Shown here: one piece after another, positions 3,763 through 25,395 of the stretch
Layout of the letters: each line of letters begins with the position of its first letter
Position numbering within the stretch: position 1 is the stretch's first letter
Source: an uncultured Acidobacteriota bacterium
Lineage (GTDB): Bacteria > Acidobacteriota > Terriglobia > Terriglobales > Acidobacteriaceae
DNA length: 32,000 nt
NCBI GenBank assembly: GCA_963764145.1
Contig: CAVXRC010000005.1
Span: forward strand, 1,660,413-1,692,412
Reading direction: 5' to 3'
Notes under the pieces: model-generated
The model's input: only the letters and a program-made list of their open reading frames with translations
Databases searched by the model: none
Told to the model about the DNA's origin: nothing
Made by a program: the position numbers and the translations under genes

Positions 3763-3902
3763 TCGCCCTCTGATTCATCGCCTGCGCGGGCGTCTTACCT
3801 GAGTCTGTCCGCCAATTGATTCGCGTTGCGGTCCGGGCTGCGTTTCTAACAGCGCAGGGAAAATCGAAACCATGCTACGATTTCGGCACCCCGGAGGCAA
3901 GG

Positions 3903-5255
3903 ATGAAGATAGACGCTCTGCGAAAACGATTGCGCGGAACCGTACTGCTGCCAGGATCGGACGACTACGAGTCGAGCCGGCACATCTGGAATGCCATGAT
4001 CGATCGCAAGCCGCGGGCGATTGCCTGCTGTAGCGGACCTGCTGATGTCCAGGCTGCCGTTGAATTTGCTGGCGAGGAAGGTATTTTCCCAGCCATTCGC
4101 GCGGGAGGCCACAATGCCGCCGGCCTGGCGATGATAGACGACGGACTGGTCATCGATGTGTCGCACATGAAGGGTATCTTCGTGGACTCAACGCAGAGAA
4201 CTGCGACAGCGCAGGCAGGACTTACGTGGGGTGAGTTCGACCGAGAGACACATTTGTACGGCATGGCCACAACCGGCGGGTTGATTTCGACCACGGGAAT
4301 CGCAGGCTTGACGCTGGGCGGCGGTGTCGGTTGGCTTATGGGAAGATGCGGACTGGTCTGTGACAACACGTTGAACTACGACGTGGTTCTGGCTAGCGGC
4401 GAGATGGCGAGAGCCAATGCGGTGGAGAATGCCGACCTGTTCTGGGCGCTGAAAGGCGGTGGCGGCAACTTCGGCGTAGTCACATCCATCACCTATCGCA
4501 CATATCCCATCAAGGAAGTCCTGGCTGGATTATTGCTTTACCCGCTCGGGGACGCGCGGGAAGTAATAAGGTTTTATCGCGACTTTACATCCGGAGCAAT
4601 TCCCGACGAACTAACCATGTATGCGGCGGCGTTATGCACACCGGATGGAACTCCCGTCGTGGCGCTGATTCCAGTGTGGTGCGGAGATTTGGAAGAAGGA
4701 GAGCGGGTATTAGGGACGGTGAGGGCATTTGGATCACCCGTTGCCGACTTGATTACGCGGATGCCGTATCCGGCGATGCAGCAGATGATCGATGGAGTAG
4801 CGCCGTTTGGCTTGCGAAGTTATTGGAAGAGCCAATTTCTTCGCGAACTGACCAACGAAGCGATTGACCAATTTGTGGAGTTTGCCGAAACGAGTGTATC
4901 GCCGCGATCGCTTGCGATCCTGGAGCACGCTCACGGCGCGGTGGCGCGCGTGCCGGCGGATGCGACTGCCTTTCCGACGCGGAGTTCGCCATACGACCTG
5001 GTGGTCATTGCCGCCTGGACAAGCGCAGAGGACGACGAGGCGAATATCGCCTGGACGCGCCGTTTCCATTCGTCCATGGAGCAATGGTCAACTCATCTTG
5101 TCTATGTCAATGCATTGGATCAGGACGATATCGACCGCATCCCCCAGGCTTACGGACCGAATTACCAACGGCTTTGTGAAGTCAAGGAAAAGTACGATCC
5201 TGAAAATCGCTTCAGGCGCAACCAGAACATTCGTCCGCGGGTGAACGCGCGTTGA
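3903..5255 (+). CDS. FAD-linked oxidase (FAD_binding_4 plus BBE domain)
   Basis: IRAGGHNAAGLAMIDDGLVIDVSHMKGI (FAD-binding PCMH type) and C-terminal YVNALDQDD...YGPNYQRLCEVKEKYDPENRFRRNQNIRP (BBE motif). The start is taken at ATG 3903, preceded by GGAGG. The track ORF begins at 3816. Confidence 0.85.
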   Translation: MKIDALRKRLRGTVLLPGSDDYESSRHIWNAMIDRKPRAIACCSGPADVQAAVEFAGEEGIFPAIRAGGHNAAGLAMIDDGLVIDVSHMKGIFVDSTQRTATAQAGLTWGEFDRETHLYGMATTGGLISTTGIAGLTLGGGVGWLMGRCGLVCDNTLNYDVVLASGEMARANAVENADLFWALKGGGGNFGVVTSITYRTYPIKEVLAGLLLYPLGDAREVIRFYRDFTSGAIPDELTMYAAALCTPDGTPVVALIPVWCGDLEEGERVLGTVRAFGSPVADLITRMPYPAMQQMIDGVAPFGLRSYWKSQFLRELTNEAIDQFVEFAETSVSPRSLAILEHAHGAVARVPADATAFPTRSSPYDLVVIAAWTSAEDDEANIAWTRRFHSSMEQWSTHLVYVNALDQDDIDRIPQAYGPNYQRLCEVKEKYDPENRFRRNQNIRPRVNAR

Positions 5256-5318
5256 GCGACGAATTCTGAAGCATGAGCGATGCCATGGATTTCGTACCTT
5301 CAGGGTTAGCTCTCGCCG

Positions 5319-6692
5319 TCAGGGACGGACCAGAAATATGTTGTTGCTCTTGAGCGTTCCTTTGGTTGTCGTTAAGCTGATGAATCCGCTCGTGGCACCA
5401 TCGGGCACTACGACTCGCATATAAGTGGGCGTCAACGCGGTAATCTGCGCCGCAACGCCGTTGAAGAAGACTTGACTAGACGGCGAGAAGTACTGCCCGA
5501 GGATGTCCACCGTCATGCCTACCCTTCCATAACTTGGTAGATAGGTGACGAACGGAGGCAAGCCAAGATCGAAGCGGAAGAGCACGCCGTTGTTGTAGCT
5601 GCCGCCGGAGACCGTAACTCCATAGAGGAAGCCGTTCGTGTGCTGAATCAATGTGCATTGCGGATCGCTGCCGGTGTACTGTTGAAAGTCGTGAAGAACC
5701 GTGAAATCGCCGGTCGTGCTGATGCGGAAGAGGACACCGCCGTCAAAGGCGCCTCCTTGTTCATTGGTGCCGTAGAGATAGCCATCCGACGCCTGGACTA
5801 ATCCCCCCAGCGGTCCCGCCCCGTCGGCGCCTCCCGTGAAATCGTGGAGTACTGTGACTTGATGCGCGGGGTTCATTCGGAAGACGACTCCAGCGTTGTG
5901 CGCTCCACCAGTGGCGGTCACGCCATATAAGTTGCCATCGTTCGCCTGGATCAGTGCGGCATAAGGACCCGTGCCATGCGTTCCGTCAAAGTTGAACAGC
6001 GATTCAAACTTACCGCTGGAATTAATCCTGAAGATCGTACCGGCGCCGTGAGTGCCGCCCGCCGCAGTGGTTCCGTAGAACCAATAGTTAGTGGCCTGCA
6101 CCAGCGGCCCCCACAGGAGATCTCCATCCGGGCCGGAAAAGGCATGAAGGACGGTGAAAGTTCCGTCCTCGGCGATCTTGTAGACAGTTCCCTGGACCCC
6201 GGGAGCCCCCTCAATACCGGGTTCAACGAATGTCGTTCCATAGAGATCGCCGTACAGGCTCTGGATCGGCGGAGCCGTGGGAGACCCGCCGTCAGCGCCG
6301 CCAGCAAAATCATGGAGAGTCTTGACGATTCCATCCGGAGTCATTTCGAAGATGGTTCCCAAACCCTGGCTGCCGCCCGTCTCGGTAGTCCCATAGAACC
6401 GCCCATTTCTGCCCAGCGTCAGACCTCCGGAGGGTGTAGCACCATCCGTGGTGTCAAATTCGTGAAGGACCGTCAATGCGCCGCTGGTTGTGACCCGGAA
6501 GGCCACTCCGGGATCGTTCCCGAAGTCGTCGGCGGTAGTGAGCAGATAGCCCCCGCGGCTCTGCGCAATGATGCCCGATTCGGGCACCGAGGGCACGCCG
6601 TTGAAGTTGACCAGAACCTTATAGCTCTGGGCATGCAGGGTTGCGGCGATAGCCCAGAAAGGAGCGAGGCTGGTAAGACGACTCATTTTCAT
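5319..6692 (-). CDS. Secreted GloVer (choice-of-anchor) tandem-repeat protein with a C-terminal IPT/TIG-like domain
   Basis: About 8 repeats of the ~45-aa unit GG..G.GT(I/V)F(R/K)...G..T(V)LH.F. Signal peptide MKMSRLTSLAPFWAIAATLHAQ from ATG 6692, with GGAG 7 nt upstream. The C-terminal beta domain reads GMTVDILGQYFSPSSQVFFNGVAAQI...VVVPDGATSGFISL. Confidence 0.8.
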   Translation of the reverse strand: MKMSRLTSLAPFWAIAATLHAQSYKVLVNFNGVPSVPESGIIAQSRGGYLLTTADDFGNDPGVAFRVTTSGALTVLHEFDTTDGATPSGGLTLGRNGRFYGTTETGGSQGLGTIFEMTPDGIVKTLHDFAGGADGGSPTAPPIQSLYGDLYGTTFVEPGIEGAPGVQGTVYKIAEDGTFTVLHAFSGPDGDLLWGPLVQATNYWFYGTTAAGGTHGAGTIFRINSSGKFESLFNFDGTHGTGPYAALIQANDGNLYGVTATGGAHNAGVVFRMNPAHQVTVLHDFTGGADGAGPLGGLVQASDGYLYGTNEQGGAFDGGVLFRISTTGDFTVLHDFQQYTGSDPQCTLIQHTNGFLYGVTVSGGSYNNGVLFRFDLGLPPFVTYLPSYGRVGMTVDILGQYFSPSSQVFFNGVAAQITALTPTYMRVVVPDGATSGFISLTTTKGTLKSNNIFLVRP

Positions 6693-9890: not shown

Positions 9891-9910
9891 TGGCGGAGAG
9901 AGGGGGATTC
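9891..9910 (-). other. Orphan tRNA 3'-end fragment, putative att core / ICE left junction
   Basis: The minus strand reads GAATCCCCCTCTCTCCGCCA, which is a T-loop end, T-stem, acceptor 3' strand, discriminator and CCA. The acceptor strand TCTCTCC would pair with GGAGAGA, which is tRNA-Ser-like. No matching 5' half, D-arm or anticodon arm exists in the adjoining 100 nt. The fragment is followed by AT-rich DNA and the integrase gene. Confidence 0.45.
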
Positions 9911-10001
9911 TCAAGCGGCAACCTGTATACTGTTGAAACTAAACGCTATGTGTAATAAAATCGGCGCTTAGCTAGATTTTAGCAGGGTAAACGGAGGGGA
10001 A

Positions 10002-11189
10002 GTGCCCAATCTGAAGGCCGTCTTGCTCTGGTACTGCCGCACTCCGCGCGGCTGGCGCCGGTTCCCCGTTTTGCTTGGTCGGAACAATAGAATTCGCCAC
10101 ACGTTTGTGACTGATCAGGGGAAGGAAATATCCTACCCGGAAGGTCGCTATCAGATTCTCGTCTACGAGGGCAGTCGTCCTGTCTACAAGAACGCGGGTG
10201 ATAACGCGGCGGACGCCCTGGCGGCTCGCGATAGGGAAACTCATTTGTTGGCGGCTAAGCTTTCAGCCGACAATGCTGGCGCCAAGATCGTCGAAGAAGA
10301 AAAGAGAACATATCTACGCCGAGCTGCCGGGCTCTACGTGCAAGACGCCGAGAATCGGAACGCCAAAGAAGCGGCAGAGCAGGCCGAGCAGGTTACTAAC
10401 GAGTTCTTGGACGTCTGCCGGAAGACGTTCGTTGACGAGGTCACCCGCGAGGACGTTTTCCGATTCCACAAGGCGTTGCGTGAGCGTGATTGCTCAGATC
10501 GGACGGTCGCCAACAAGCATGCTCGACTAAAAAGCTTCCTTCGATTCGCCGGCGTCGATCTCGCCATCGTTCCTCCAAAGCCAAAGTATGAAGAGGCGTT
10601 GCCGACGATCTACACAACGGAAGAGATACGGGGAATCCTCCAGGCAGCCGATCCCTACATGCGGATCGTGATCGAGATGGGTCTGAAGCTGGGGCTTCGC
10701 GAACAGGAATTGATGTATGCGGAGTGGACGGACTTGGACTGGGAAGAATCAGCGTTCAGAGTTCAAGGAAAGAAGTTTTGGGATTTTCGCGTGAAGGATT
10801 CTGAGCAGCGAGAGATTCCATGCGCATCGGACCTGCTGAAGGCGTTGAAGGCATGGAAGAAGAAGCATCCGAACTCCCGCCTGATCGTCGGGACCACCAG
10901 CGACAGCCCGAATACTCATCTGTTGCGTTCCCTCAAGCGATTGGCCAAACGCGCAAATCTGAACTGCGGGAAATGTGACGGATGCAACTCGAAGCTGAAT
11001 GAATGCCAAGGTTGGACCCTGCATAAGTTGCGGCGAACGTACTGCACAACCCTATTGCGCAACGGAATCGATCTGAAGACGGTCCAACACTACATGGGTC
11101 ATGCTGACTTGGCTTCTACGATGCGCTACCTGCGTCCGGCGGTCGGAAAGGAATCCCAACAGCGCATCAACGCCATTCAATGGATCTAA
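10002..11189 (+). CDS. int: Tyrosine recombinase / phage-type integrase
   Basis: GTG start after GGAGGGGA. The catalytic pattern is GLREQEL (Arg), HKLRRTYCT (H-x-x-R), MGHADLASTMRYL (His and Tyr nucleophile). An N-terminal SAM-like core-binding region is present (EDVFRFHKAL...NKHARLKSFLRFA). Confidence 0.9.
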   Translation: MPNLKAVLLWYCRTPRGWRRFPVLLGRNNRIRHTFVTDQGKEISYPEGRYQILVYEGSRPVYKNAGDNAADALAARDRETHLLAAKLSADNAGAKIVEEEKRTYLRRAAGLYVQDAENRNAKEAAEQAEQVTNEFLDVCRKTFVDEVTREDVFRFHKALRERDCSDRTVANKHARLKSFLRFAGVDLAIVPPKPKYEEALPTIYTTEEIRGILQAADPYMRIVIEMGLKLGLREQELMYAEWTDLDWEESAFRVQGKKFWDFRVKDSEQREIPCASDLLKALKAWKKKHPNSRLIVGTTSDSPNTHLLRSLKRLAKRANLNCGKCDGCNSKLNECQGWTLHKLRRTYCTTLLRNGIDLKTVQHYMGHADLASTMRYLRPAVGKESQQRINAIQWI

Positions 11190-11567
11190 AGGACTGGCAA
11201 CGGAATCACGCCGCGGGCGGCTTGAGCAGTGGGCGGACGCGTCGACGAATTCATCAAGTGAATTGCCGTCCGGGAAGATGGTTTTGACACTGCTGCCGTG
11301 CGCGTTGTGCGTAAAGAGGACGGGCAAAATCTGCTCGATATTGCCACGAAAAATCCACCTACGGACCTTACGTTGTTGCACTTGGTCTGGCAGAAGGCGC
11401 ACTTGCTGGCGATTTACCTGACGTTACCGGCGGCGCTGTCTCTTACTGCGACCGCGATGTATGCTCTGCGCCTGCCTGTTCCGTCGGGAAGACGCCCTGC
11501 TATCTGACCGGCACGCGCCTGTTTTTCAACCTCACTGCGGTCTCTTCGTAGTTGATATCCTTCAAAG

Positions 11568-12653
11568 ATGAATACTGTCTTCTATTCCTGGCAGAGCGAC
11601 AGGCCTGGGGCGGTTTGTCGCAATTTCATCGAGCGTGCTCTCCAGTCGGCCATCGACAGGCTGCGAGCCGACGTGGAGATTGAGCCGTCCCTGCGGAATG
11701 ATCTCGAACTCGATAAAGACACGAAAAACGTACCGGGCTCTCCCGCCATTTTCGACACGATTCTGTTGAAGATTGAGGCAGCGAGAGTTGCGGTTTCCGA
11801 TCTTACGTTCGTGGGCCGACGCGAAGACGGTAGACCGATCCCAAACCCGAACGTTTTGATCGAATACGGTTATGCGCTAAAGAAACCCGGCGCTACGAGA
11901 ATCCTTGCCGTGATGAACGAAGCGTATGGCGACGCGTCGAATCAAACCCTGCCTTTTAATCTAGCGCATGTAAGATTTCCTATTCGATATTCGCTGGCTG
12001 AGACCGCATCCGAGGACCAGAAGAAGGAGGCGCGAAAAGCGCTCACGGATGCATTCGAGTCGGCCTTAAGGACAATCTTCAGTAGCAAGGAATATCAAGC
12101 GGAAGAGGCAAGGCGGGTTCCCTCGGCGCTCGATGTTGCTGCCATTCATAAAAGAGAGCAGGAGTATTCATACCGGCTATCTGCTCTCGGCTATGGAGAC
12201 GGCCTAGAGGATGTCAACCAAAACGTAAAAACCTTGTTCGACCTCATCTGCGCCAAATGCAATGAAGTCGAAGCAAAACACAATTTGGATATCGAATCCG
12301 GCTTTCAAATAATTCCTCGGGAGAGAACGCAGGGTTGTGTCTTAAAGACACCGCATCTTGGAATCGTTCTGAATTGGGAGCAGCCCTTCATAAATTCGCT
12401 TGATCGCGCGAATCTCAACGTCGTTGAGTTGAGCGGGCGTCTCTATCTGCCTGGCCAGTTCTCGGGGGGAGCGTATTTTCCGCCGGAGGAACTTGACCGA
12501 AAAATCTATCAACCAACTCTCTCGGACGCGCTCGAGATCGGATGGGTGAAGCATGGAAAAACGATTCGGGAATCCCCTTTCATTTCGAACGAAAAATTTG
12601 CTGAAGGATGCGTCTCGCAGCTTTTGAATATGCCCCGAAAGGGCAATCGGTGA
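11568..12653 (+). CDS. TIR-like / nucleoside 2-deoxyribosyltransferase-like N-terminal domain protein with an unknown ~200-aa C-terminal domain
   Basis: The N-terminus is VFYSWQSDRPGAVCRNFIERAL...DKDTKNVPGSPAIFDTILLKIEAARVAVSDLTFV...PNPNVLIEYGYALKKPGATRILAVMNEAYG...LPFNL. This is the F(Y/S)SWQSD ... PNPNV.(I/F)E.GYA pattern I associate with TIR-like/NDT-like flavodoxin-fold domains. I do not recognise the C-terminal half. Confidence 0.55.
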   Translation: MNTVFYSWQSDRPGAVCRNFIERALQSAIDRLRADVEIEPSLRNDLELDKDTKNVPGSPAIFDTILLKIEAARVAVSDLTFVGRREDGRPIPNPNVLIEYGYALKKPGATRILAVMNEAYGDASNQTLPFNLAHVRFPIRYSLAETASEDQKKEARKALTDAFESALRTIFSSKEYQAEEARRVPSALDVAAIHKREQEYSYRLSALGYGDGLEDVNQNVKTLFDLICAKCNEVEAKHNLDIESGFQIIPRERTQGCVLKTPHLGIVLNWEQPFINSLDRANLNVVELSGRLYLPGQFSGGAYFPPEELDRKIYQPTLSDALEIGWVKHGKTIRESPFISNEKFAEGCVSQLLNMPRKGNR

Positions 12654-12922
12654 AACCTGAACGAGCATCGACCCGAACATGAGATTATGTTGAAATCAAC
12701 AATTCTGGCTTTTTGGTGTAGACCGGTAAGCCATTGTACTACTTCAACTTTCTGTGATCATGAGTTCTCGCCAACCTCACAGAGACGCACTCCGGGTTTT
12801 GTTCTTGATTCGCGCCGGCGGATCGGCTCCAGAGCCTCCTACGGAAGCGATCATTTAGATCTTCCGTTCAGAGGCGAGACTGCACGCCATGGATTTCTGG
12901 GTGAAAAAGAGGGCTCCTCAGG

Positions 12923-14473
12923 ATGTACTTTAAGGTGGCAACGACCTCAAGGCCCGACCTCGGGGGCCGGCTCCCAAGTGTCGTCCTTGTAGAGGACCAA
13001 TGGGACGACTGGTTCCAGTTCAGTACCATGTACACGGTTTACGTATTTGACTCCGGAGGCATTAGGCATCACATTGGAAGCGTAAAAATTGGTCAGTTTG
13101 GCATGGCTTCAGATCAGCGGCGCCCAGCGTTGGAAACTGATTTTGAAGCGCTAGACGATCGCTTCTTTTCCTTGGGCCAGGATGATTCCTATTACTCTCA
13201 GCTAAATGAACTCGTTCCGGATCTCAAAGACGAAATCCTAAACGCCCTAAGAGACCTTCCATACGGTGACTCCCGTCTATTTGAAATCGCACTTAAGGAA
13301 CGTGTGACTACCGTTTCCCTGCTTCGAAGTGTGGCGAGGGGAAGCGTGAGAGATCAGTTTCGCCGAATAGCACTAGGTGGAGCCAGGCTCTCTCAGTATC
13401 ATTTTTCGTATACTGCAGCTGCTATAGGACGACCAAGAAAAGCCGGGGCCTCATTTTCATTCGACGTACAGCCTGAATCGCAGCCGCCAACTAATATCCA
13501 CGTGATCATCGGGCGAAACGGTGTCGGAAAAACCTATCTTCTGAATGCAATGTCGAGAGCCTTGGTCCGCCTGCCGGACGATGAAATCGACAACGGTCGG
13601 TTCGACTTTCCTCACGAAACGTCGGGAACTGGGCTCTTTGCCAATTTTGTATCAGTGACATTCAGCGCATTCGATCCATTCGAACCGATTTCGGCGAGTC
13701 AGAGCCGAAAGGCTGGCGTGGAATATTCCTATATCGGTCTCAAGCGAATTCCTAAGCCGGGCGAAGAAAGGCCGTTGGCACCAAAATCCCCACAAATGCT
13801 TTCCCGCGAATTCACCGAGAGTGCGAAGATCTGCAGACAGGGAGCTCGGGCGGGTCGGTGGCTCAGAGCGCTCAAAATGCTGGAATCTGATCCCATATTC
13901 AAAGATGCCCAAGTCGCCTCCTTAGCTCCGTCGGATGAGGAGGGGGAACCGGGAACAGGTTCATCTACCAACGACATTTTTTCCCGTCTCAGCTCGGGAC
14001 ACAAGATTGTTCTGTTAACCATCACCCGCTTAGTCGAGACAGTCGCCGAGCGAACACTGGTCTTGCTTGACGAGCCGGAAGCTCACCTACATCCACCTCT
14101 TTTATCGGCGTTCATCCGAGCTCTTTCTGACCTCTTAATCAACCGTAATGGGGTCGCTATCGTCGCCACCCACTCGCCGGTCATCCTCCAAGAGGTTCCC
14201 CGAAGCTGCGTCTGGAAACTTCGACGAAGCGGCTTGATTTCTGTGGCAGAAAGGCCGGAAATTGAGACTTTCGGAGAGAACGTCGGGATCCTCACGAGGG
14301 AGGTATTCGGGCTCGAAGTAACGGACTCAGGTTTTCATAGGCTGCTCGCTGAGAGCGTCTCTGGAACGCGAACCTATGAACAGGTACTGACACGATTCAA
14401 CGGGGAACTTGGGGGAGAAGCAAGAGCCATTGTGATGGGACTACTTGCGGCGCGAGACGAGGAAGAAGCATAA
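12923..14473 (+). CDS. ABC/OLD-type (AAA_15/AAA_21-like) ATPase, PtuA-like, with an extra ~190-aa N-terminal domain
   Basis: Walker A GRNGVGKT (nt 13511-13534). Walker B / D-loop LVLLDEPEAHLHP (about nt 14057-14095). H-loop ATHSP. The first ~190 aa (SVVLVEDQWDDWFQFSTMYTVYVFDSGGIRHHIGSVKIGQFG...FFSLGQDDSYY) precede the P-loop and are not recognised. Confidence 0.75.
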   Translation: MYFKVATTSRPDLGGRLPSVVLVEDQWDDWFQFSTMYTVYVFDSGGIRHHIGSVKIGQFGMASDQRRPALETDFEALDDRFFSLGQDDSYYSQLNELVPDLKDEILNALRDLPYGDSRLFEIALKERVTTVSLLRSVARGSVRDQFRRIALGGARLSQYHFSYTAAAIGRPRKAGASFSFDVQPESQPPTNIHVIIGRNGVGKTYLLNAMSRALVRLPDDEIDNGRFDFPHETSGTGLFANFVSVTFSAFDPFEPISASQSRKAGVEYSYIGLKRIPKPGEERPLAPKSPQMLSREFTESAKICRQGARAGRWLRALKMLESDPIFKDAQVASLAPSDEEGEPGTGSSTNDIFSRLSSGHKIVLLTITRLVETVAERTLVLLDEPEAHLHPPLLSAFIRALSDLLINRNGVAIVATHSPVILQEVPRSCVWKLRRSGLISVAERPEIETFGENVGILTREVFGLEVTDSGFHRLLAESVSGTRTYEQVLTRFNGELGGEARAIVMGLLAARDEEEA

Positions 14474-15318
14474 TGTGGCCCCTTAATTCGCCAACTCGCC
14501 TCGTTGAATCTGTGCTTGCCACTTGCGTCAATAACATTGCGAATGCCGCAGCCAAGGCAACATATGAAAGCATGGCCCCGTTGTTGCTAGCAGCCGAAGA
14601 CCAGTTCAGAGCGGCCGCCCAGAACAACACACTACATCAGCTTCCAACGACCACAATGGTCGGGGCTCTGACAGCGAAGCAAATGGCCTGGCTCTACAGC
14701 AAGAAAATGGCAGATCCTAAAGCCCCAGGCAGAGCGATATATGACGAGATCAGAATGGCAGCCCCAAACGGGAGATGTCCGCTTTGCGGAAGAGGAGTCG
14801 TCTACACTCTGGACCATCATCTGCCTAAAGCCCACTATCCAGACCTTGCAATCACACCGATAAATCTCGTCCCCGCTTGTCAAGATTGCAACAAGAACAA
14901 AACCAGCATTTTGCCGACCACGGCCGGTGATGAAACTCTACATCCCTATTTCGACGACGTTGAACGAGATATTTGGCTCCACGCTCGCGTGATAGAGGTC
15001 GCGCCGGCAGCAGTCCTCTATTCGGTAGTTCCGCCGGCGACGTGGTCTCCGACTTTAGAAACGCGGGTGAAAAACCATTTCCGAATTTATCACCTGCGTC
15101 AACTCTATGCGTCGTTGGCGGGAGAGGAGATTGTTAACATTCGTGCTTTGCTAGCTGGCCCGCAGGCAAAGTCGGGGGCTCAGGGCATTCGAGAGTACTT
15201 AACATCTGTTTCAGAAAGCCATCGAACAACAAGACGAAACACTTGGCAGGCAGCCGCTTACTCCGCCATGGCGTCGAGTGACTGGTATTGCGAAGGAGGC
15301 TTTGCTCTCAAGGGGTAA
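14473..15318 (+). CDS. HNH endonuclease (HNH_5/TIGR02646-like), PtuB-like
   Basis: The start overlaps the ATPase stop (TAATG). HNH core: CPLCGRGVVYTLDHHLPKAHYPDLAITPINLVPACQDCNKNK. Confidence 0.75.
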   Translation: MWPLNSPTRLVESVLATCVNNIANAAAKATYESMAPLLLAAEDQFRAAAQNNTLHQLPTTTMVGALTAKQMAWLYSKKMADPKAPGRAIYDEIRMAAPNGRCPLCGRGVVYTLDHHLPKAHYPDLAITPINLVPACQDCNKNKTSILPTTAGDETLHPYFDDVERDIWLHARVIEVAPAAVLYSVVPPATWSPTLETRVKNHFRIYHLRQLYASLAGEEIVNIRALLAGPQAKSGAQGIREYLTSVSESHRTTRRNTWQAAAYSAMASSDWYCEGGFALKG

Positions 15319-15537
15319 CCTGCTACGAGGCAAACGAGCAAGGAAATGTGCCACTTTTGTGAATGCTCCCCCAACTTGTTGTCCACCAAAACATCTCGGA
15401 AGAAATCGGTCCCGATATGTCCGCTAGTTTCCGCGGATGACTGTAACCGATAGCAGGTGCCCATCAATTGTTTCCGTGTTGGCGCGACGGGTGGGGATTG
15501 ACAGCGGATGAGCAACGTGGTTTGTTTCCGATCGGAA

Positions 15538-15999
15538 CTACTGAATAGCCTTGGATTCGAGCCATGCCGCTGTCGCGTGCGGATCGAAGCGAATCGCCCC
15601 GCCGATGCGCAGTGACGGCATCCTGCCCTTCTTCGCGAGCTTGTAGATGTGTTTGCGACTGAGGGAGAGAACCTCTGCCAACTCTTCCGCCGTCCAGGCT
15701 GTACGCCTCTGGCGCACCAGAGAGGCGAGCGATTCAGATTCTGGATTCAATTGTGCACGGCCTTGCCCCCGAAGATCACGGGGCCCCGCCATCGGCGCCC
15801 CCATCTTCCCCCGTCGACGCATTGGCACTGTGGCGGAGCGCCTCGGTTTGCGACTTTCAATACCATCCTCGAACCGTGATCGGGATGGTTGAGAAGGAAT
15901 CTCATGACCTGTCGTTTGGACTTCCGAGGCAGGCAGAGTTCGCCTGGGGACCTCCTGGGCCAGATCTCGTTCGAGATTTATGCCGTTCTCGATAGTCAT
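15538..15999 (-). CDS. Excisionase-family (HTH_17/MerR-like) DNA-binding protein
   Basis: The C-terminus is WTAEELAEVLSLSRKHIYKLAKKGRMPSLRIGGAIRFDPHATAAWL. The N-terminal ~90 aa are low-complexity, so the true start may be internal. Confidence 0.6.
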   Translation of the reverse strand: MTIENGINLERDLAQEVPRRTLPASEVQTTGHEIPSQPSRSRFEDGIESRKPRRSATVPMRRRGKMGAPMAGPRDLRGQGRAQLNPESESLASLVRQRRTAWTAEELAEVLSLSRKHIYKLAKKGRMPSLRIGGAIRFDPHATAAWLESKAIQ

Positions 16000-16034
16000 T
16001 CTTGGCCCTCAATTGCATATCCAGGAGTTCATCA

Positions 16035-16715
16035 TCAACTGAACGCTTGATCCGTGCGGAACCGCACGATCGTCAATCCCAGCGGATTCACGGCAAGTTC
16101 GTTGTTTTTCACGTTTTCGCGGAAGACGTAGGTGACGGTCGCCGTCCAGCGTTCGCGCTTCACTTCACTGTGATCCGCGGGGTTCGTGAAGATCTTTTCG
16201 AACTCGATTCGCGCGGAATAGGGGGACTGCCGGAGATCATCGAGGACTACGTTTTTGACTTGGACATCGACGAACGGAAGGCCAGAATCCCTTTGGTAGT
16301 TCTGGATGACGTTGTCCTTGCGCTCCTGGTCAATGACCTGGCGCTGCACGTCGCCGTTCAGGAAGTAAAGCGCGTTCATCTGGTCGCGTTCGATTGTGAA
16401 CCGATTGCGGCTGAAATAGAGTTCGGCCCAGCGCGAAAGGTAGTACTTGTTCTCAGCTTCCTGAGGGCGGTATTGAAAATTGCGATAGTCGATTGCTTCG
16501 GCTCGGCCGACATCGTTGATGCGCACGATCATCGGATGCCTCGCTGCAAGCGCTCCTTGCGCTCTGTAGACAAGGGCCGTGAGCACAAGACAGATGGTGC
16601 ACAGCACCAGCACCGCAATCTTCAAATAGGTGTTCATCACGAGCGGCTCGCCATACTGTTCCAGATATTTTTCGGCGGCTCGGGTGAAATCGGGTTGTCT
16701 CATACTGACCTCCAT
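16035..16715 (-). CDS. virB8: T4SS VirB8/TrbF-like protein
   Basis: A single N-terminal TM helix (YLKIAVLVLCTICLVLTALVY) is followed by an NTF2-like periplasmic domain (YLSRWAELYFSRNRFTIERDQ...YSARIEFEK...WTATVTYVF). An alternative start at ATG 16703 has a GGAGG 6 nt upstream. Confidence 0.75.
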   Translation of the reverse strand: MEVSMRQPDFTRAAEKYLEQYGEPLVMNTYLKIAVLVLCTICLVLTALVYRAQGALAARHPMIVRINDVGRAEAIDYRNFQYRPQEAENKYYLSRWAELYFSRNRFTIERDQMNALYFLNGDVQRQVIDQERKDNVIQNYQRDSGLPFVDVQVKNVVLDDLRQSPYSARIEFEKIFTNPADHSEVKRERWTATVTYVFRENVKNNELAVNPLGLTIVRFRTDQAFS

Positions 16716-16720
16716 GTGGG

Positions 16721-17578
16721 CTACAGCGCCCGCGCAACTAATGCCGTAACCATTCCGCTAAGGCCGCTGCTATGACCGCCGACGTGGCCGGAGAAGAGGC
16801 TCGCCGTCATCGTCGGAATCTTCAGCAAAATAAATCCAGCAACCAGGCACATCATGAGCAGACCAGGCATGAGATAAACAAGCCTTTGCGGATCGTTGAC
16901 ATTCATCGCACCGCTGGTCAGGTACGTGATCATCAGGTGGCTCATGACGCTCATGGTTGCGGCGGCGACGACCTTGTAAAATTCAAATCCGACAAAGGCT
17001 TTGAGCCATCCCCAGAAGAGAAAATCGGTCTTATCGAACACCATCCATGGGATAAACACCGGGCCAAGAAGTCCAATAATGGTTGCGCCGATCGCGCCAT
17101 AGGCCAAAATTACTCCGATCAAGCCAGCCAAGATGCACAGCGAGATCTGCACTGTGTAACTGCAAACGAGCTTGTAGGGTTCGGTAAACGACGGTGAGAG
17201 GCTGCCGACTTTGCTCAGAGCTGCATGGATCGTGTTCTGGACTTCCTGCGTCGAGTCATTGCCGATGTAATCCACCAAGCTGCTCGTTCCGCCGCTGACA
17301 AAACCCTTGAGTGAGTAGCCAATTCCTGGGATCGAACTGTCGTAGAACTTCACGAAGCAGTAAGCAAAAGTGAGCAGCACGAAGAGGCTGATGAATTTCG
17401 GCAGACTAAACCCCGGACCGCCTTGCGCAGACGCGAGGGCCTCCTGTACGCCAAACCAACAAATCATGATGGTCGCAAGAGCAATGACCATTCGTAACCC
17501 AAGCGAATCGATAGAAGGCGACGCCGTTGCTGTCAGGTTGTCGCAGCCATTCTTAATCAGGATCAGAAAATCCATCAC
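16721..17578 (-). CDS. virB6: T4SS VirB6/TrbL-like polytopic membrane protein
   Basis: 285 aa with at least 5 predicted TM helices. It sits between the VirB5-like and VirB8-like genes. Confidence 0.65.
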   Translation of the reverse strand: MMDFLILIKNGCDNLTATASPSIDSLGLRMVIALATIMICWFGVQEALASAQGGPGFSLPKFISLFVLLTFAYCFVKFYDSSIPGIGYSLKGFVSGGTSSLVDYIGNDSTQEVQNTIHAALSKVGSLSPSFTEPYKLVCSYTVQISLCILAGLIGVILAYGAIGATIIGLLGPVFIPWMVFDKTDFLFWGWLKAFVGFEFYKVVAAATMSVMSHLMITYLTSGAMNVNDPQRLVYLMPGLLMMCLVAGFILLKIPTMTASLFSGHVGGHSSGLSGMVTALVARAL

Positions 17579-17594
17579 CAGCCCCCAAAGCTCC

Positions 17595-18407
17595 TTAATA
17601 ATGAAATGCCCATTGCGTGCCCGCGCTTGTCTGCTGAGGCGTGAGATACTCGAAATTCTGCTGGTAACCGTTGCCCGTCTGGAAGAGCGCCTTCAGGTTG
17701 TCCTGCTGAACCTTCTGGCCGACGATCTGTTGCAAAGTCTGGCCCTGAAGGATCTGATTGGTTTCCTGTTGGCTGCGCAACTCAATCAGGAGAGCCTGAT
17801 TAATGCGCTGCAACGTCGCCATCTCGGTATGCTGCGCCGGATCGCTTGAATGCGTCGCTGCTTCGAGTTGGCTGATGTCGGCCTCGCGCTGTGCCGCATT
17901 CGCGCGGACGGTCCCAACAGTTTGCAGATTGCTCGCATTTATGGCGTCCGAAAGATCGACCGTCGCCCCCTGTGCAGCAATCGCCTGTTGTCCTTCTGCA
18001 CTGAGAGAGGAATAGCCGGAGATCTGCCCCGTGTGCGGCAGACTCGACGACTGGTTAGCAGCAGACGCTCCATACCCGGTCGTAGCGGCATTGATCCAGG
18101 GAAGCGAGTTGCCGTAGGTATTCGCCGGCCGAGTGAGAATGATCCACTGCTGCCGGCCAAGATTGGCGTAGGAGCTGTATAGGGTCTGGGGCAGAGACGC
18201 CATCCGCTGGGCAAGGTTGTAGGCGGCGATGACGTTTCTGGTCGTCGCGACCGTTGTGGTGTACAACTGGTTTCCCTGCGTGATCTGTTGAATGGCGTGC
18301 CCAGATTGTGTCGGATCGAAGACAATACCTGATCCGAAGAACTGCGCATGCGCCAGCGTAGAAAGGGATGCAAACGCCATTGCCGCTACGACTCTGTGTA
18401 GTCTCAT
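17595..18407 (-). CDS. T4SS VirB5/TrbJ-like secreted protein
   Basis: Signal peptide MRLHRVVAAMAFASLSTLAHA from ATG 18407 (GAGGAG upstream), then GIVFDPTQSGHAIQQITQGNQLY, which is a TrbJ-like V(F)DP..... motif. The rest is helical and Q-rich. Confidence 0.6.
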   Translation of the reverse strand: MRLHRVVAAMAFASLSTLAHAQFFGSGIVFDPTQSGHAIQQITQGNQLYTTTVATTRNVIAAYNLAQRMASLPQTLYSSYANLGRQQWIILTRPANTYGNSLPWINAATTGYGASAANQSSSLPHTGQISGYSSLSAEGQQAIAAQGATVDLSDAINASNLQTVGTVRANAAQREADISQLEAATHSSDPAQHTEMATLQRINQALLIELRSQQETNQILQGQTLQQIVGQKVQQDNLKALFQTGNGYQQNFEYLTPQQTSAGTQWAFHY

Positions 18408-18423
18408 GTGTGTCTCCTCTGGC

Positions 18424-18669
18424 TCATTTGCTTCGTTCGTCCTGTAGTTGCTTCCAGACCTCGTCCATTTGCTTGGCTTCATCAGCGCATTTCTGACTGA
18501 ACTGGGGCTTGGCTTTCAAATACTCGTCTCCGCAGTCTTTCTGGTATTGCTGACTAAGCCGGTCATGCTCTTTCTGAAGGGCTTCGATCCTCGCCTGATG
18601 AGTTTTACAGCCGGTCAATGCGATAGCCGAAACTGCGATTAGAACAGCGGATGATGCAGCTTTGAACAT
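18424..18669 (-). CDS. Small lipoprotein in a VirB7/TrbH-like position
   Basis: 81 aa. Lipobox AIALTG|C after a signal peptide. The gene sits between the VirB10-like and VirB5-like genes. Confidence 0.6.
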   Translation of the reverse strand: MFKAASSAVLIAVSAIALTGCKTHQARIEALQKEHDRLSQQYQKDCGDEYLKAKPQFSQKCADEAKQMDEVWKQLQDERSK

Positions 18670-18681
18670 GAGTCAATCTCC

Positions 18682-20013
18682 TCAAAAGGTTTGCGGAATC
18701 GTGTGATTGTCGTATGCAGGTAGAAGCATGTCCTGCACGAAATAGACCTTGATACGATGTCCCTCCCGAATCGTGATCGTGGGAGGGATCTGAATGAACC
18801 GGTCGAGCACGGTGGTTGCCGACTGCGAGACGCTTGACGCGGCGCCCGTCGTGAATGCCTGCGAACCACTCGTTGTGATCGTTCCGCCGCCAGCTTCGAT
18901 CTGACTGGCTCCGGCGATCACACCCAAGGCAATGGAGATTCCGAAGATTTCGAAATAATGGTTGTTCACCTTGTCTTTCAGGCCTTCCTCTCCGATCTGA
19001 TCGAGGCCGTGAAACTGATCGAGATCGACCGAATATCCATCGGGCATGATCATGCGATGGAAAACGACCGCCATCCGCCGCTGCTGACCGAAGCCGCTTG
19101 ACCCGATCTTGCGAGCCTCCCCGAGCACGATCGTTCCATCTGGAATGAGCACATGCTGGCGATCGTGCGAATAAACGGGGCTTGATACCATGACCTTCAC
19201 CGGGCCAGGGGCATCTCCGTCGAGCCGGTTCATCAGAATCGTGTCCATCGTGAGGCCCTCATAAATCACATACGGCTGCCCAACCGCCGAATCGATATTG
19301 ACCTCCGCGGTTCGCTTGGCTGCAGGATCTCCACTCGAATCGCTCTTCTTTCCCGCCGCCTGTTGGGCCGGGATCATGTTCGTCGCCGGCGGATCAGACG
19401 GTTGGCTTGAAGCCGCTTGGATCGCGCCGTCCGAATGCGGATTCGCATCAGGAGCGGATGCAGCCTGAGGAGCGTTCGCCTGCGCATAAACAAGATTCGA
19501 TGCAAATCGAGCGTTGTACGCCAGTTCCCGCTCCTTGGCCGCCAGTTGTTGCGCTTGTTGCTGTTCCGGGGAAATTTGGGTTGCCCATAGACTCCTTGTT
19601 GCTGGCAGGGCTGGCCCGGCGTGCAGGACGTGGTTGCCCTGTTGGCCCATAGGCCGCGGCGGCTGCCTGCTGCGCCGGAGTGCCAGTCGATAATGCGGGT
19701 CGTCGCCGATGGCTGACTCGCTGCGGTCTGCGCTTCTTTCTGGCGCTCGGCGGCGAGCTGGTTCTTGAGATCCTGGACGTTGTTGTCCGTGTTGTCCTGA
19801 AGCGCTGGCTGCGGGGCTCATGCTGCGATGCGGCGATGGCCGGGTCTTCTTCCGGTAGTTGCTGATGAGGGCCGCAGACGACGACCGCCGACGCCCCCAG
19901 GAAGACCCCGACCTTAAGGTTCTTTCGGATCACGCCCTTGGGCTCTGTCTTGGCGCGATGCAACTGCGGCCAGGTACGGCCACGTGTTCGGGTTGAATCG
20001 TCTGCTCTGCCAT
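18682..20013 (-). pseudogene. virB10: T4SS VirB10/TrbI-like; the 3' two-thirds is intact and the 5' ~450 nt needs at least 4 frame changes
   Basis: The C-terminal domain is intact in one frame (PYVIYEGLTMDTILMNRLDGD...IPDGTIVLGEARKIG...GEEGLKDKVNNHYF...HRIKVYFVQDM). ATG 20013 lies 4 nt after the virB9 stop and gives MAEQTIQPEHVAVPG. The next segments read in other frames: LHRAKTEPKGVIRKNLKVGVFLGASAVVV, AALISNYRKKTRPSP and LQDNTDNNVQDLKNQLAAERQKEAQTAASQP. Confidence 0.7.
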
Positions 20014-20016
20014 TGG

Positions 20017-20780
20017 TTATCCCTTCCGTGTGAAGTCCATGCGCTTCTTGCCCAGTTCCAGGTACCCTGAATCCATGACCTTCGGGATGATGTAGGTCCC
20101 GTCGCGAAGGTCGTAGTTGACGAGGTTGGGCTTGCCGTCCTTCATCTCGTAGACGCTGAACTTCTCCGGGCCGTCGTCTTGATATAGGTGAACTTGTCGT
20201 CGTGGATAGATCGACTGAATGTCGAAGGGCGCTTCGTTCACGTTGAACGTATAGTCGAATTCAGCGAGAGCGGATACGCGCTCTTGTATTCGTCCACGGC
20301 CTGCGTGACATGCGCCTGCACAGCGGCAAGCTGCTGCCGCGACTGCTCGAGCTGCGCGGCAGGAACAAACTGCGCGGGCCCGGATGGACGCGACGATCGA
20401 AGAGTGGTCGGCAGGCTCGACGAGAACTTTCAGATCGGGCGCGACCGTGGCTGTCCGAAACATCCTGCAGGGTGAAGCTGTAGATGTTGCCTTTGTCCGT
20501 GATCAGGTTGAGATTGGAACTGATGCCGGCCTTCGCCGGATGAACGAAGCAGAAGTTGCCCACCACGTCGACGACCCAGAAATCCTTGTCGCCGGTCGCG
20601 GCCTCCATGATCTTTTCCGAGGGCGGCACCTCGATCAGGGTGGTGTACTTCAACTTGGCGTGGATGGGAACGATGTCCTGCGAGTGGTACTGCACGGTGC
20701 GCGCCGCGGCATCCTGCGCGAAGGCACGCAGTCGAGACTGAGAGCAATCTGAGAGCGGTGGAGATGGAGTGAGCGTTCAT
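20017..20780 (-). pseudogene. virB9: T4SS VirB9/TrbG-like, multiply frameshifted
   Basis: The pieces, in reading order across frames, are:
- MNAHSISTALRLLSVSTACL (signal peptide)
- VQYHSQDIVPIHAKLKYTTLIEVPPSEKIMEAATGDKDFWVVDVVGNFCFVHPAKAG...NLITDKGNIYSFTLQDVS
- APDLKVLVEPAD
- QFVPAAQLEQSRQQLAAVQAH
- EFDYTFNVNEAPFDIQSIY
- HDDKFTYIKTTA
- PEKFSVYEMKDGKPNLVNYDLRDGTYIIPKV
The start ATG overlaps the virB4 stop (ATGA). Confidence 0.7.
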
Positions 20781-23296
20781 ACAGCGGCTCCTTTGGGTTG
20801 GAGGTTGACGGTGCCGGCCGTCGTGCGAGGCCGGAAGGGATAGTCCTGGGCGAGCCGGCGCAAGCCTTCGGCGAATGCCGAAGCGCTCGAAGTATTCGCG
20901 CTTGGTAAGGTTGTCCCGGGCATTGTTGGTCGCCATCCAGTGGGAAACCGAATCGACGTTCAACTGAACTTTCTTCGAGCTCTGCGCTTTCCGGATCAGC
21001 ATCTGACCGGGGGGAACGAGGCCGGCGATGAGTTCAAGCTCCGTGTCGTTCAGGTGAAACGCCTCGCGGTAGAGCTCGCGGTCCATCTCCGGGTTGGCAA
21101 GGAAGATCTTGGTCGGGCAGCTCTCGGAGACGATCTGGAGCATCCCCGATTCCTCAAGCTCCTTGATGGACTGCGTGGCGAGGATCATCGCGGCATTGTG
21201 CTTGCGCCAGGTCTTCTGCGCCTGGACGACATAGTTGCGGATCGTCTCGTTGCTGATGAACAGCCATGCCTCGTCGAGCAGGAACATCTTGAAAGTGCCG
21301 AGCTTCGCGGGATCGGTGATCTCGTTGCTCGCCCGATGCAGGACATAGAACAGCAGCGGCTCCAGAACCTCGCGGCGCATCTCCCCAGCCGGCGAAGTTG
21401 AAGGTCTGGAAACGGCTGAACGAGAGCGTGTCTTCGGCGTTGTCGAAGAGGAATCCATACTGCCCTGCCCGCGTCCAGCGATGAAGCCGTTCCTTCAGCT
21501 CGCCGAGGATGTTGGCGAAGTTGGAGATGGTGCGCTGTTCGGGCTCGAGAACGTACACGCGCTCGATCCCGTCCCAGAGCTTCCGTTCTTCTTTGAAGTC
21601 GAGCCGGTACCGCGTGTCGTTGCCTTCGATCAGCGCCCGGAAGAACGCGAAGAGAAACTGCAGGTTTTCTTCGGTGCGGCGGAAGCGAGAACGGGTTGAT
21701 CGTGAAGTCGCGCGATTCGCTGGCCGACGTTCAGGTAGCTCCCGCCGAAGATCGTGGTCAGCGATTGGAAGCTGCCGCCGATGTCGAAGATGAAGGTGAG
21801 CGGCTCGTACTTCTGCGCATTCTGCAGCAGGAAGTTGCAGAGGTAGGATTTGCCGCATCCGGTCATGCCGAGGATGAGCGTGTGCGCAACCTCGCCGTTG
21901 TGCAGGTTCAGGAAGTACGGCGTGCTGTTGTCGGTTTCGAGCACCGCCAGGTATTCCGCGCCGAGATGCGGATTCCACTGTCTCGCCGGGCAGGATCGTG
22001 AACAGAAACGAGAGATCGGCATAGTTGGTGTTGAGCAGCAGCAGCCGGCGCAGATTCAGCGCGTAGTTGCCGGGCACCGTGGCGAAGTAGGCATTGAGCT
22101 GGTTGTAGGTCTCGACGAAGAGACTGCCATCGGCATTGGTGAACACGCCGGCGAACTCGCCCACCAGCCGATTCGACTTCGCTTTCGATCGCGGCCATAG
22201 AGAACGATGGTCAGAGAGAAGTCGCCCAGCGACTGGCCATCGCCCAGCGCGCGCAGGCAGTCGCCAAGGTTCTCGATATCGGCCTGCTTCGATTCATCGA
22301 TCAGAACATCGCGCGGGTTCGTCTTCGTCGGATCGTTGCCCAACTGCGAGATGAAGCCGGTCTTGGAGATGTTGAAGTGGCGGCGGCGCTTGTTCACTTC
22401 CTTGCGCGCCTTGTCCGCCGGGAAGCGGCGTCCACTCCGTCACCACATGGAAGTTGCCCGGAATCTTGAGCAGCGCATCGAGCACCAGCGGCCGCGTCTC
22501 GGCGATAGCCTCCTTCATCGTCAGCACGCGGACGAAGTGATCGCCCACGCGCAGATGGTCGCGCTCGGCCTCGATGTCGGAATTGACGACCTGGATAGTC
22601 GAGAAACTGCGTGCTCTTCGGATTGCCCGCAATGCGCCAGTCATCGTAGTTCAAAAGCCGGCGGAAGAACCGGAATTGGCCGCGCTGATTCAGGATCTCG
22701 ATCGGGACGAAATCGCTCAAGCTGGCGAACGAATGCCTCGACCCGCTGTTCGAGAAGAGCGCGGTCGCTTTCGATCTGCGACCGCAGCAGAGTCTTCATG
22801 CTGCCGCTTGCGAACTGCGCCTTCAATTCTTCGAAGGCGCCGGCCGGATTCTCGGCCAACCGGGCGAGGGCCGGACCGATTCCGGTCTTTGCAGTGTGCA
22901 GCCTCGAAGAAGAATGCAGTAGAAGATCTCGATCTGATAGAGAGCGTCGCGTTTGGCCTGGAAGAACTCGCGCCGGTGATTGACTTCGGTCTGAACGACC
23001 GGGTCGTCATAGTGCGCGAATGGAATCTCGGGCCGGTTCGATTTGAACAGATACTGATAGACGTGGAACCCGGGACCGAACGACTTTGAGCGCAGCTTCC
23101 AGCCGCTTGACGGCATATTCCTGCTCCGCGTGATCGAGGCTCTCGTAGTCGACCCCGGAACACGCGAAGCACCATGCCCAGGTCGCCGCTCTTGGTCAGA
23201 AACGCCGTCTCATTCCAGAAGCCGTAAAGATTGATGTGATCGTTGAGCGCACGCGGCTTCTTTCCACGGCTTGATGACCTTATCGAGGCGCAGCAT
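20777..23296 (-). pseudogene. virB4: T4SS VirB4/TrbE ATPase, broken by about ten or more 1-nt frameshifts
   Basis: The total span of about 840 codons fits TrbE. Walker A ILGMTGCGKSY is encoded at nt 21846-21875. Walker B MFLLDEAWLF is at about nt 21265-21294. Collinear conserved fragments are spread over the ORFs 23210-, 22823-, 22641-, 22394-, 22294-, 22056-, 21154-, 21630- and 20430-. The start ATG overlaps the virB3 stop (TGATG). Confidence 0.8.
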
Positions 23297-23594
23297 CAGC
23301 GCACCTCCACACGAGGGAGAGATTGCTTGGCGGCGTCGTAGCGCGCGTTGTAACGTTCCGATTTCGCCAGGATGCGAAGAAGAGCGGGATCGCTTCCGGT
23401 CACCCAACAGCCGAATGCAAACCCGCCCGCAAAGAGGAGCAACCCGGCGACCAGGCTGTTGAACAGGTTGAATGCGCCGACGGCGCCACACAGACGAAGA
23501 AGAACAGCGTTCGCTCGACCCCGAGGTACGTGAGGGGCTTGTGCAGGCTTTTGTAGACCCGGTTCCTCCGTCGGGTTGTAGTGTGTGTCTGCAT
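23296..23594 (-). pseudogene. virB3: T4SS VirB3/TrbD-like with one frameshift near 23482-23484
   Basis: MQTHTTTRRRNRVYKSLHKPLTYLGVERTLFFFVCVA continues in another frame as VGAFNLFNSLVAGLLLFAGGFAFGCWVTGSDPALLRILAKSERYNARYDAAKQSLPRVEVR*. Confidence 0.65.
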
Positions 23595-23652
23595 CGTCGC
23601 CCCTCGCGTAAGCGTTGGTTGATGGTTGAGGTTGTAGCTCGGAGAGGTTCGG

Positions 23653-23934
23653 TTAGATACCCCAAAGCCAGGTCAGGACGTTGGTGGCGAGCACGGCGAT
23701 TCCCGTGCCGGCGGCGACGCCGGCGAGAGTCTTCTTCGCGCCGGGCTCGCCGTGCGCGAACTGGTAGCCGCCAACCACAATCGCGATCAGGCTGGCGACT
23801 TTGGCAACCGTGCCGGTGAACAGGGTTTGCATGGCGGTAAAGCCGGTATCGAAGGGTGAGCCGCCCGCTGCTTGCGCGTGCGCGGCGACCGGCACGAGCA
23901 GAAGAAGCAGGAAGATCGCTTTCGAGTCTTTCAA
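23653..23934 (-). CDS. virB2: T4SS VirB2/TrbC-type pilin
   Basis: 93 aa. Signal peptide ...LLLLLVPVAAHAQA followed by two hydrophobic helices (VAKVASLIAIVVGGYQF; AGVAAGTGIAVLATNVLTWLWG). TTG start as given in the track. Confidence 0.7.
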   Translation of the reverse strand: MKDSKAIFLLLLLVPVAAHAQAAGGSPFDTGFTAMQTLFTGTVAKVASLIAIVVGGYQFAHGEPGAKKTLAGVAAGTGIAVLATNVLTWLWGI

Positions 23935-24195
23935 TGAGACGAAAGTGCCTCCGCCATGCGGGCGAAAGATTCATGCGTGTACCTCCGTTTCTGTGAATTT
24001 GACCTCAACCGAGCAGGTCATGACCCAGAGATTCGCGCGAACTCGATTTCTTGTCCAAGGCTTTATTCGCACGGTTTGATGCGTGAAAACCATCAATATG
24101 GCGCGCGTTGTAACCGTGCGGAGTCTGGCAGTACGTGACGGAGTTACTCTCTGTGGAAAATCTCAACTCGCGATCGCGAAATCTCCTCCACAAGT

Positions 24196-25276: not shown

Positions 25277-25395
25277 TGGAGCAGATTGAGGAAGTGGCGA
25301 ATGGCGATCCGGCTATCATCAAAGTGTTAACCGGGTCTTGTTGGCCAGGAAGCTCAAAAGGAAAGTTAATTCGCCGAATACCGAGAGGAAGGCGC

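Follow-up and report, generated by a model that had tools for sequence, protein, structure and literature searches.

An integrase-proximal ATPase–HNH nuclease gene pair of an uncultured Acidobacteriaceae bacterium is, by its sequence, a member of the phage lambda Ea59/Ea31 family

A 32,000-nucleotide (nt) stretch of contig CAVXRC010000005.1 from an uncultured bacterium of the Acidobacteriaceae (the window) carries, close to the integrase of an integrative and conjugative element (ICE), two overlapping genes that encode an ABC-type ATPase and an HNH nuclease. Judged by its sequence, the locus is a member of the phage lambda Ea59/Ea31 family, a Septu-related clade that is already catalogued in PADLOC as PDC-M01. 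It is one more copy of a widespread module and should not be flagged as a new defense system. The first-pass annotation, made from the letters of the window alone, had proposed a new Septu subtype or a distinct sensor-fused system, a proposal that gives way to the presence of the pair in both PADLOC and PHROGs and to its homology with lambda ea59–ea31. The pair is probably best explained as a gated ATPase–HNH nuclease module of this family with a role in defense or competition.

Membership in the lambda Ea59/Ea31 family

Both proteins match the PDC-M01 models of PADLOC from end to end. Residues 1–514 of the ATPase align to positions 1–508 of the 510-position PDC-M01A profile PDLC04235 (E 3.4e-201), and residues 1–278 of the HNH partner align to positions 1–279 of the 282-position PDC-M01B profile PDLC04264 (E 1.1e-101). 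As in PDC-M01, the genes are adjacent and co-directional, and nothing structural differs. PHROGs likewise contains both genes, as phrog_8066 (522 positions, unknown function) and phrog_10378 (HNH endonuclease), the latter being matched by the HNH partner over its full length (E 3e-62). In BLASTP comparisons, the ATPase shares an amino acid identity of 43% with the lambda-type Ea59 over residues 14–513, a span that includes the N-terminal domain (E 2e-126), and the HNH partner shares 27% identity with the lambda-type Ea31 over its full length (E 1e-41). Among phage genomes, tblastn detected homologues in lambda, HK629, HK630, and their relatives. When the lambda-type proteins are themselves compared with PADLOC, they score on the same models as the window pair (PDC-M01A, E 8e-202; PtuA1 PDLC00282, E 9e-185; PDC-M01B, E 6e-113), which identifies PDC-M01 as the Ea59/Ea31 family.

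The likeness to lambda extends to the arrangement of the genes, which follow the same order, overlap each other, and adjoin a tyrosine integrase. HK630 carries, in this order, int, attP, ea59 (AAA ATPase, 525 aa), ea31 (HNH endonuclease, 296 aa), and ea47, and the lambda-type ea59 and ea31 overlap by 4 nt. Positions 2065–6438 of HK630 (NC_019723) hold int, attP, ea59, and ea31 in the order and orientation of the integrase, ATPase, and HNH genes of the window. Mobile elements of very different kinds thus carry the module close to the integrase. Unlike its lambda counterpart, the window pair resides in an Acidobacteriaceae ICE and not in a lambdoid phage, and a TIR-like gene lies between integrase and pair only in the window. 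Within the ATPase, divergence from lambda Ea59 is greatest in the N-terminal domain, where the identity is 31%, as against 75% around Walker B. In the searched literature, ea59 and ea31 were not found mentioned together with Septu or PtuA, which is weak evidence that the link is undrawn.

The family is large and constant in its architecture. The ATPase has matches in more than 7,700 protein clusters, and the best 120 of them are mostly ~515 aa long with ~60% identity and come from Acidobacteria, Alpha- and Gammaproteobacteria, and Actinobacteria. In a scan of one genome per species, at least 353 loci encode a relative, and the phyla represented among them also include Cyanobacteria, Bacteroidota, Bacillota, Verrucomicrobiota, Planctomycetota, Campylobacterota, Myxococcota, and Chloroflexota. 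Eighty of these loci were fetched and examined for the architecture of the pair. The N-terminal domain is present in the ATPase open reading frame (ORF) at all 80, and an HNH partner lies directly downstream on the same strand at 77; of the three exceptions, one lies at the end of a contig, one seems to be interrupted, and one is an artefact of stop-to-stop ORF coordinates. Abutting or overlapping coordinates of the two genes recur in homologous loci of other phyla, and the ATPase and the HNH protein form an obligate pair. The homologue-bearing records include 81 from plasmids and 24 from phages.

The ORFs of 516 and 281 aa, their 1-nt TAATG overlap, and all of the ATPase and HNH motifs are confirmed as the first-pass annotation had read them (Table 1). 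The Pfam matches of the ATPase, AAA_21 (E 2.6e-18) and AAA_15 (E 3.2e-12), start only at about residue 187, and no Pfam family matches residues 1–186. The HNH protein matches Pfam HNH (PF01844) at residues 102–145 (E 3e-5). Across 34 homologues, nine of its residues (C102, C105, D114, H115, N131, C136, C139, N140, and K143) do not vary, the four cysteines being those of the zinc finger, and it carries its own conserved N- and C-terminal regions. The catalytic motifs of both proteins are intact, which speaks for catalytic competence. The sequence of the module is sound, since a short-read contig (L007) is 100% identical to positions 11832–16137 of the window. The HNH protein has a 100% identical database entry (P0121). 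A promoter scan of positions 12500–15700 found no sigma-70-like promoter, a result that says little for an Acidobacterium.

Table 1. Features of the ATPase–HNH gene pair in the window. Residue numbers refer to the encoded protein; invariance of the ATPase motifs refers to a 30-sequence alignment.
Feature	Coordinates	Strand	Description	Basis
Putative Shine-Dalgarno-like sequence, purine-rich aaagaggg	12906..12913	+	9 nt 5' of the ATPase ATG	Read from the sequence
Ea59-like / PDC-M01A ABC-type ATPase gene	12923..14473	+	516 aa, ATG start	ORF, PADLOC, BLASTP
Conserved N-terminal domain, ~residues 1–155	12923..13387	+	Five-stranded beta-sheet, then helical bundle	AlphaFold2 model, profile matches
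Walker A / P-loop GRNGVGKT, residues 197–204	13511..13534	+	G197–T204 invariant	Alignment
ABC signature-like LSSGH, residues 356–360	13988..14002	+	S357, S358, G359, and H360 invariant; L356 nearly	Alignment
Walker B LLDEPE, residues 381–386	14063..14080	+	L381, D383, E384, P385, and E386 invariant; L382 nearly	Alignment
H-loop ATHSP, residues 415–419	14165..14179	+	A415–P419 invariant	Alignment
TAATG stop/start overlap (translational coupling)	14471..14475	+	Junction gcaTAATGtgg; one base common to TAA and ATG	
Ea31-like / PDC-M01B HNH nuclease gene	14473..15318	+	281 aa, ATG start	ORF, PADLOC, PHROG, BLASTP
HNH beta-beta-alpha-metal core with CxxC...CxxC zinc finger, residues 102–143	14776..14901	+		Pfam HNH PF01844, alignment

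The N-terminal domain and the relation to Septu and retrons

The domain ahead of the P-loop had been called unrecognised in the first-pass annotation, which does not hold. Residues 1–195 alone match positions 1–191 of PDC-M01A (E 2.8e-58) and positions 18–192 of the PADLOC Septu profile PtuA1 PDLC00282 (E 2e-53), and the domain alone also matches phrog_8066. It already lies inside typed defense-system models (PDC-M01A and PtuA1 PDLC00282), an outcome that the annotation itself had set against its proposal. The AlphaFold2 model of residues 1–170, built from a 27-sequence alignment, has a predicted local distance difference test score (pLDDT) of 88.9 and a predicted template modelling score (pTM) of 0.83, with strands at residues 2–6, 19–24, 36–42, 48–58, and 81–85 followed by helices across residues 88–150. 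The full-length model shows the same fold, with the first beta-strands of the ATPase at residues 159–182. Foldseek searches with the domain model gave no significant match in PDB (best E 0.57) or in BFVD, and a profile of the domain found only chance-level matches among PDB sequences. The Affimer/cystatin scaffold (E 0.03) and GrpE, both among these chance-level matches, were rejected as relatives. The lack of any match to the domain in Pfam, PDB, or BFVD is the observation that speaks for a previously unrecognised sensor-fused ATPase–nuclease system or a new Septu subtype. That idea is nevertheless highly improbable, since PADLOC (PDC-M01A and PtuA1 PDLC00282) and PHROGs hold the whole architecture with the N-terminal domain included, the pair corresponds to lambda Ea59/Ea31, and the databases contain more than 7,700 relatives.

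The mean pairwise identity is 0.46 in the N-terminal domain, 0.50 in the Walker-A lobe, 0.38 in the helical insert, and 0.79 in the signature/Walker B/H-loop region. The residues W27, D29, W30, K55, Q65, R67, G85-Q86-D87-D88, Y91, R135, R148, and R155 of the domain are conserved. Being about as conserved as the Walker-A lobe, the N-terminal domain would seem more likely to bind a conserved ligand, or to serve in structure or docking, than to act as an arms-race sensor of a phage protein. Searched against 1.84 billion representatives, its profile matches 2,139 representatives at 50% identity, and in the best 150 of these the domain stands at or near the N-terminus of proteins of ~500–550 aa or of shorter apparent fragments. 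The domain (12923–13507) also matches internal positions 175–266 of another PDC-M01A model of 639 positions, PDLC04240, and weakly matches the C-terminal part of the single-gene PADLOC candidate PDC-S34 (E 0.009). These two matches hint at further architectures that contain the domain.

Septu type I (PtuA/PtuB; E. coli ATCC 25922 and Ec-B88; PDB 8EEA) shares with the window pair the two-gene combination of an ABC-type ATPase and an HNH nuclease and the occurrence in defense islands. The first-pass reading of a Septu-related ATPase–HNH operon is supported. Residues 18–515 of the ATPase align to positions 18–519 of the 520-position PtuA1|PtuA profile PDLC00282 of PADLOC (E 3.3e-187), and PtuA proteins are the closest solved ATPases. 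The best sequence-profile matches in PDB are the retron Ec78/Eco7 PtuA (E 3e-10), and the top ranks of Foldseek with the full-length ATPase are 9kjz_B (retron-Eco7, E 3e-6), 8eea_D (E. coli Septu, E 4e-5), and then the Ec83 PtuA. The same results favor a canonical Septu type I, in which an ATP-inhibited PtuAB DNase would be switched on when ATP falls during infection or the complex would cleave tRNA-Tyr. Also in favor of a canonical Septu, PDC-M01, an unpublished PADLOC candidate, receives duplicate calls with Septu in Bacillus genomes (PMC11811056), and the mechanisms of validated Septu and retron PtuAB are published (PMC12673091; PMC13096335). It is reported that ATP binding inhibits the Septu DNase and that removal of the multicopy single-stranded DNA (msDNA) frees the retron PtuAB (PMC12673091).

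A canonical Septu is nevertheless unlikely in view of what separates the pair from it. The NCBIfam PtuA equivalog model gives the ATPase 48.5 bits vs a cutoff of 500, the other PtuA1 models of PADLOC match it only locally (E 1e-14 to 1e-23), and its sequence similarity to solved PtuA is restricted to about residues 344–470, the signature/Walker B/H-loop region; the Walker B region is thus part of what aligns to PtuA structures. The Walker A lysine is K43 in the validated Septu Ec-B88 (PMC13096335), with the ATPase at the N-terminus, and K203 here, after the additional ~155-residue domain and a linker. The HNH partner has no NCBIfam PtuB or TIGR02646 match at E<=0.1. Solved PtuB chains are matched by its profile at no better than E 1.7–1.9, in the HNH core alone, with no significant PtuB similarity beyond that core. 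The best 25 PADLOC matches listed for it are PDC-M01B models, so that a match to a PtuB model, if there is one, would be weaker than E 8.5e-14. The partner is also longer, with 281 aa vs 216 aa in the Eco7 PtuB (PMC12673091). The statement in the first-pass annotation that canonical PtuA proteins start directly at the P-loop fits standalone Septu, as K43 vs K203 indicates, but not the PtuA of Retron-Eco7, which has a 63-residue N-terminal domain that contacts the reverse transcriptase–msDNA complex and is required for defense (PMC12673091).

The type I-A retrons (Retron-Eco7/Ec78 and Ec83; 'Septu type II' in PADLOC) likewise combine a PtuA-like ATPase with an HNH effector, and in the Eco7 PtuA the domain ahead of the ATPase engages the sensor component, reverse transcriptase–msDNA (PMC12673091). 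The short Eco7 domain is, however, unrelated in sequence to the N-terminal domain of the window ATPase. An association with a retron was rejected, since no reverse-transcriptase Pfam domain occurs in the scanned flanking ORFs (integrase, TIR-like, and HTH_17) and the window has no Rfam match. The OLD-family and AAA_15/AAA_21 defense ATPases (GajA, PARIS AriA, AbiLi, and MADS MAD3) share the ABC-type ATPase head. The hidden Markov models of the OLD-family type match only partially, at about residues 350–430 (E 1e-13 to 1e-20), and the AriA/AriAB models of PADLOC only locally, at residues 352–427. In the OLD-family nucleases, GajA, and AriA, the ATPase is fused to or paired with a Toprim nuclease or AriB. 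The window ATPase has no Toprim or other fused nuclease, Pfam showing no Toprim domain, and its partner is an HNH protein.

Proposed function of the module

As a gated nuclease module, the pair would work by analogy with PtuA–PtuB. Dimers or oligomers of the ATPase would hold the HNH subunit, and the nucleotide state would gate the nuclease. The nuclease would be released or activated by a cue that arises when a foreign element invades or replicates, most plausibly single-stranded DNA in view of the single-stranded-DNA dependence published for the lambda endonuclease, and the cutting of nucleic acid would then block the competitor or abort the infection. The N-terminal domain would most likely regulate the nuclease or recognise the cue, or else provide the surface on which the partner docks. 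Both the ICE and its Acidobacteriaceae host would gain from a module carried as cargo close to the integrase.

The neighborhoods of the family are consistent with such a role. The immediate neighbors in other loci are heterogeneous, and many are defense or mobile-element genes, such as HEPN_AbiU2 with IS91, Mrr, an S8 peptidase with an AAA ATPase, an OLD-like ATPase, and an HNH-ResIII-DEAD combination. Among 102 flanking ORFs, there are four integrases, two resolvases, two Mrr proteins, and two methylases, as well as BrxL, McrBC, SAVED, JetD, a Schlafen-like helicase, and a terminase. Strong PADLOC matches among the neighbors are BrxL, GajB, HerA, HamB, a SAVED-HNH CBASS effector, LmuB, and JetD. 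Genes of BREX, Gabija, Hachiman, CBASS, and Wadjet, restriction genes, and integrases often stand near family members. The survey of homologue neighborhoods that the first-pass annotation had called for thus found defense and mobile-element neighbors to be frequent, an association that is supported qualitatively and without a background control.

Alternatively, the module may serve the mobile element, as a nuclease of its active phase that acts on host or competitor DNA or processes the element's own DNA, or as an addiction module. The lambda ea59–ea31 genes lie immediately beyond int/attP, the window module is equally integrase-proximal, plasmids and lambdoid phages frequently carry members of the family, and the module is 100% identical in two ICE variants whose backbones have diverged by 5–18%. 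On the other hand, most of the surveyed copies are chromosomal and stand beside classical defense genes and not beside genes for element replication or transfer, and the pair is not accompanied by a conserved third gene of the antitoxin type. In phage lambda, ea59 is labelled 'ATP-dependent endonuclease' and was scored non-essential (PMC10695390). Both genes are part of the early leftward operon, and lambda can do without them (PMC10695390; PMC9674246), which leaves room for an element-serving function, although dispensability for lambda growth also tells against it. On balance, a module that serves only its element is improbable.

Apart from this position in the lambda operon and the missing background control, several further points weigh against a gated defense or competition module. 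The full-length ATPase model is of moderate quality (pLDDT 70, pTM 0.47), and the Foldseek comparison in which PtuA chains outrank ABC-transporter domains draws on this pLDDT-70 model and yields template modelling (TM) scores of only 0.2–0.3. The N-terminal domain is mildly acidic (isoelectric point 5.2), so a simple DNA-binding role is not favored. The single-stranded-DNA-dependent endonuclease reported for lambda in 1982 is only presumably the Ea59/Ea31 product, an assignment based on a RefSeq-style label. No experiment that shows anti-phage activity of the Ea59/Ea31 clade was found in the searched literature, and no experimental validation of PDC-M01 is reported (PMC11811056).

Within the gated-nuclease explanation, it may tentatively be proposed, as a possibility short of an expectation, that the Ea59/Ea31 clade is a mechanistically distinct relative of Septu, in which the N-terminal domain, a structure without precedent, would detect a conserved cue of infection (exposed single-stranded DNA, for example) and thereby license the HNH partner. 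If true, this would give the lambda b-region genes ea59 and ea31 a role in inter-element warfare or defense. The value of the finding lies in the whole family, with its lambda link and its unexplained N-terminal domain, and not in the window locus. The family is worth an experiment, as it is very abundant, spans many phyla, includes textbook lambda genes, is represented only by the candidate PDC-M01, and has an N-terminal domain with no recognisable fold relative. The cue sensed by that domain, once shown, would clarify how triggers have diversified in Septu-like ATPase–nuclease systems.

Genomic context and mosaic structure of the element

The module lies between the tyrosine integrase (10002–11189) and the HTH_17, VirB8, VirB6/TrbL, and VirB10/TrbI genes, so that the earlier description of integrase-proximal mobile-element cargo is borne out by the integrase and type IV secretion system genes that flank it. 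Relatives of the neighboring gene are from Terracidiphilus and Silvibacterium, in keeping with an Acidobacteriaceae source. The accompanying claim of an ICE backbone riddled with frameshifts stands in part: VirB4 and VirB9/CagX are split across frames (~20390–23300, minus strand), whereas VirB8, TrbL, and TrbI are intact. A related contig (L006; ENA contig_72651) shows the reverse pattern, with VirB4 intact and VirB8, TrbL, the TIR-like gene, and the integrase split. Because the frameshifts differ between the two, the argument from an intact module in a decaying backbone carries modest weight only. The indels in the ICE genes may reflect either biological decay or assembly error.

The same contig aligns to positions 9909–25331 of the window as a mosaic, in which blocks of 100% identity (9909–10500, ~12900–15500 with the whole module, and ~18300–19500) alternate with blocks of 82–96% identity. 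In the latter, mismatches are strongly concentrated at third codon positions, a sign that the divergence of the two ICE variants is real; sequencing noise was therefore rejected as the source of the substitutions, the indels being a separate matter. The identical module in two diverged variants suggests either a recent exchange of the cassette or a strain-chimeric assembly.

No tRNA gene and no Rfam family were found in the whole window (1–32000), and no direct repeats of >=18 nt were found in 9000–32000. The attachment sites of the ICE were not located, and its other end is probably outside the window. The gene that immediately follows the HNH gene (15538–15999, minus strand) encodes a 153-aa protein whose C-terminal domain is an HTH_17 of the excisionase/AlpA-like type; it stands at the start of the type IV secretion block and is probably the excisionase or regulator of the ICE.

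Between the integrase and the ATPase gene, a 361-aa protein (11568–12653, plus strand) has a TIR-like N-terminus (MNTVFYSWQSD...), with a match to Pfam CAP12-PCTIR_TIR that falls below the threshold (E 0.007), and no match to a PADLOC or PHROG family. The gene was rejected as a third component of the module, since it does not accompany the pair elsewhere, which leaves a two-gene system. The TIR-like protein has ~600 database relatives, mostly from Acidobacteriaceae, many of them sharing only the N-terminal half, with differing C-termini of ~410 aa, and its gene may be an independent, uncatalogued defense gene.

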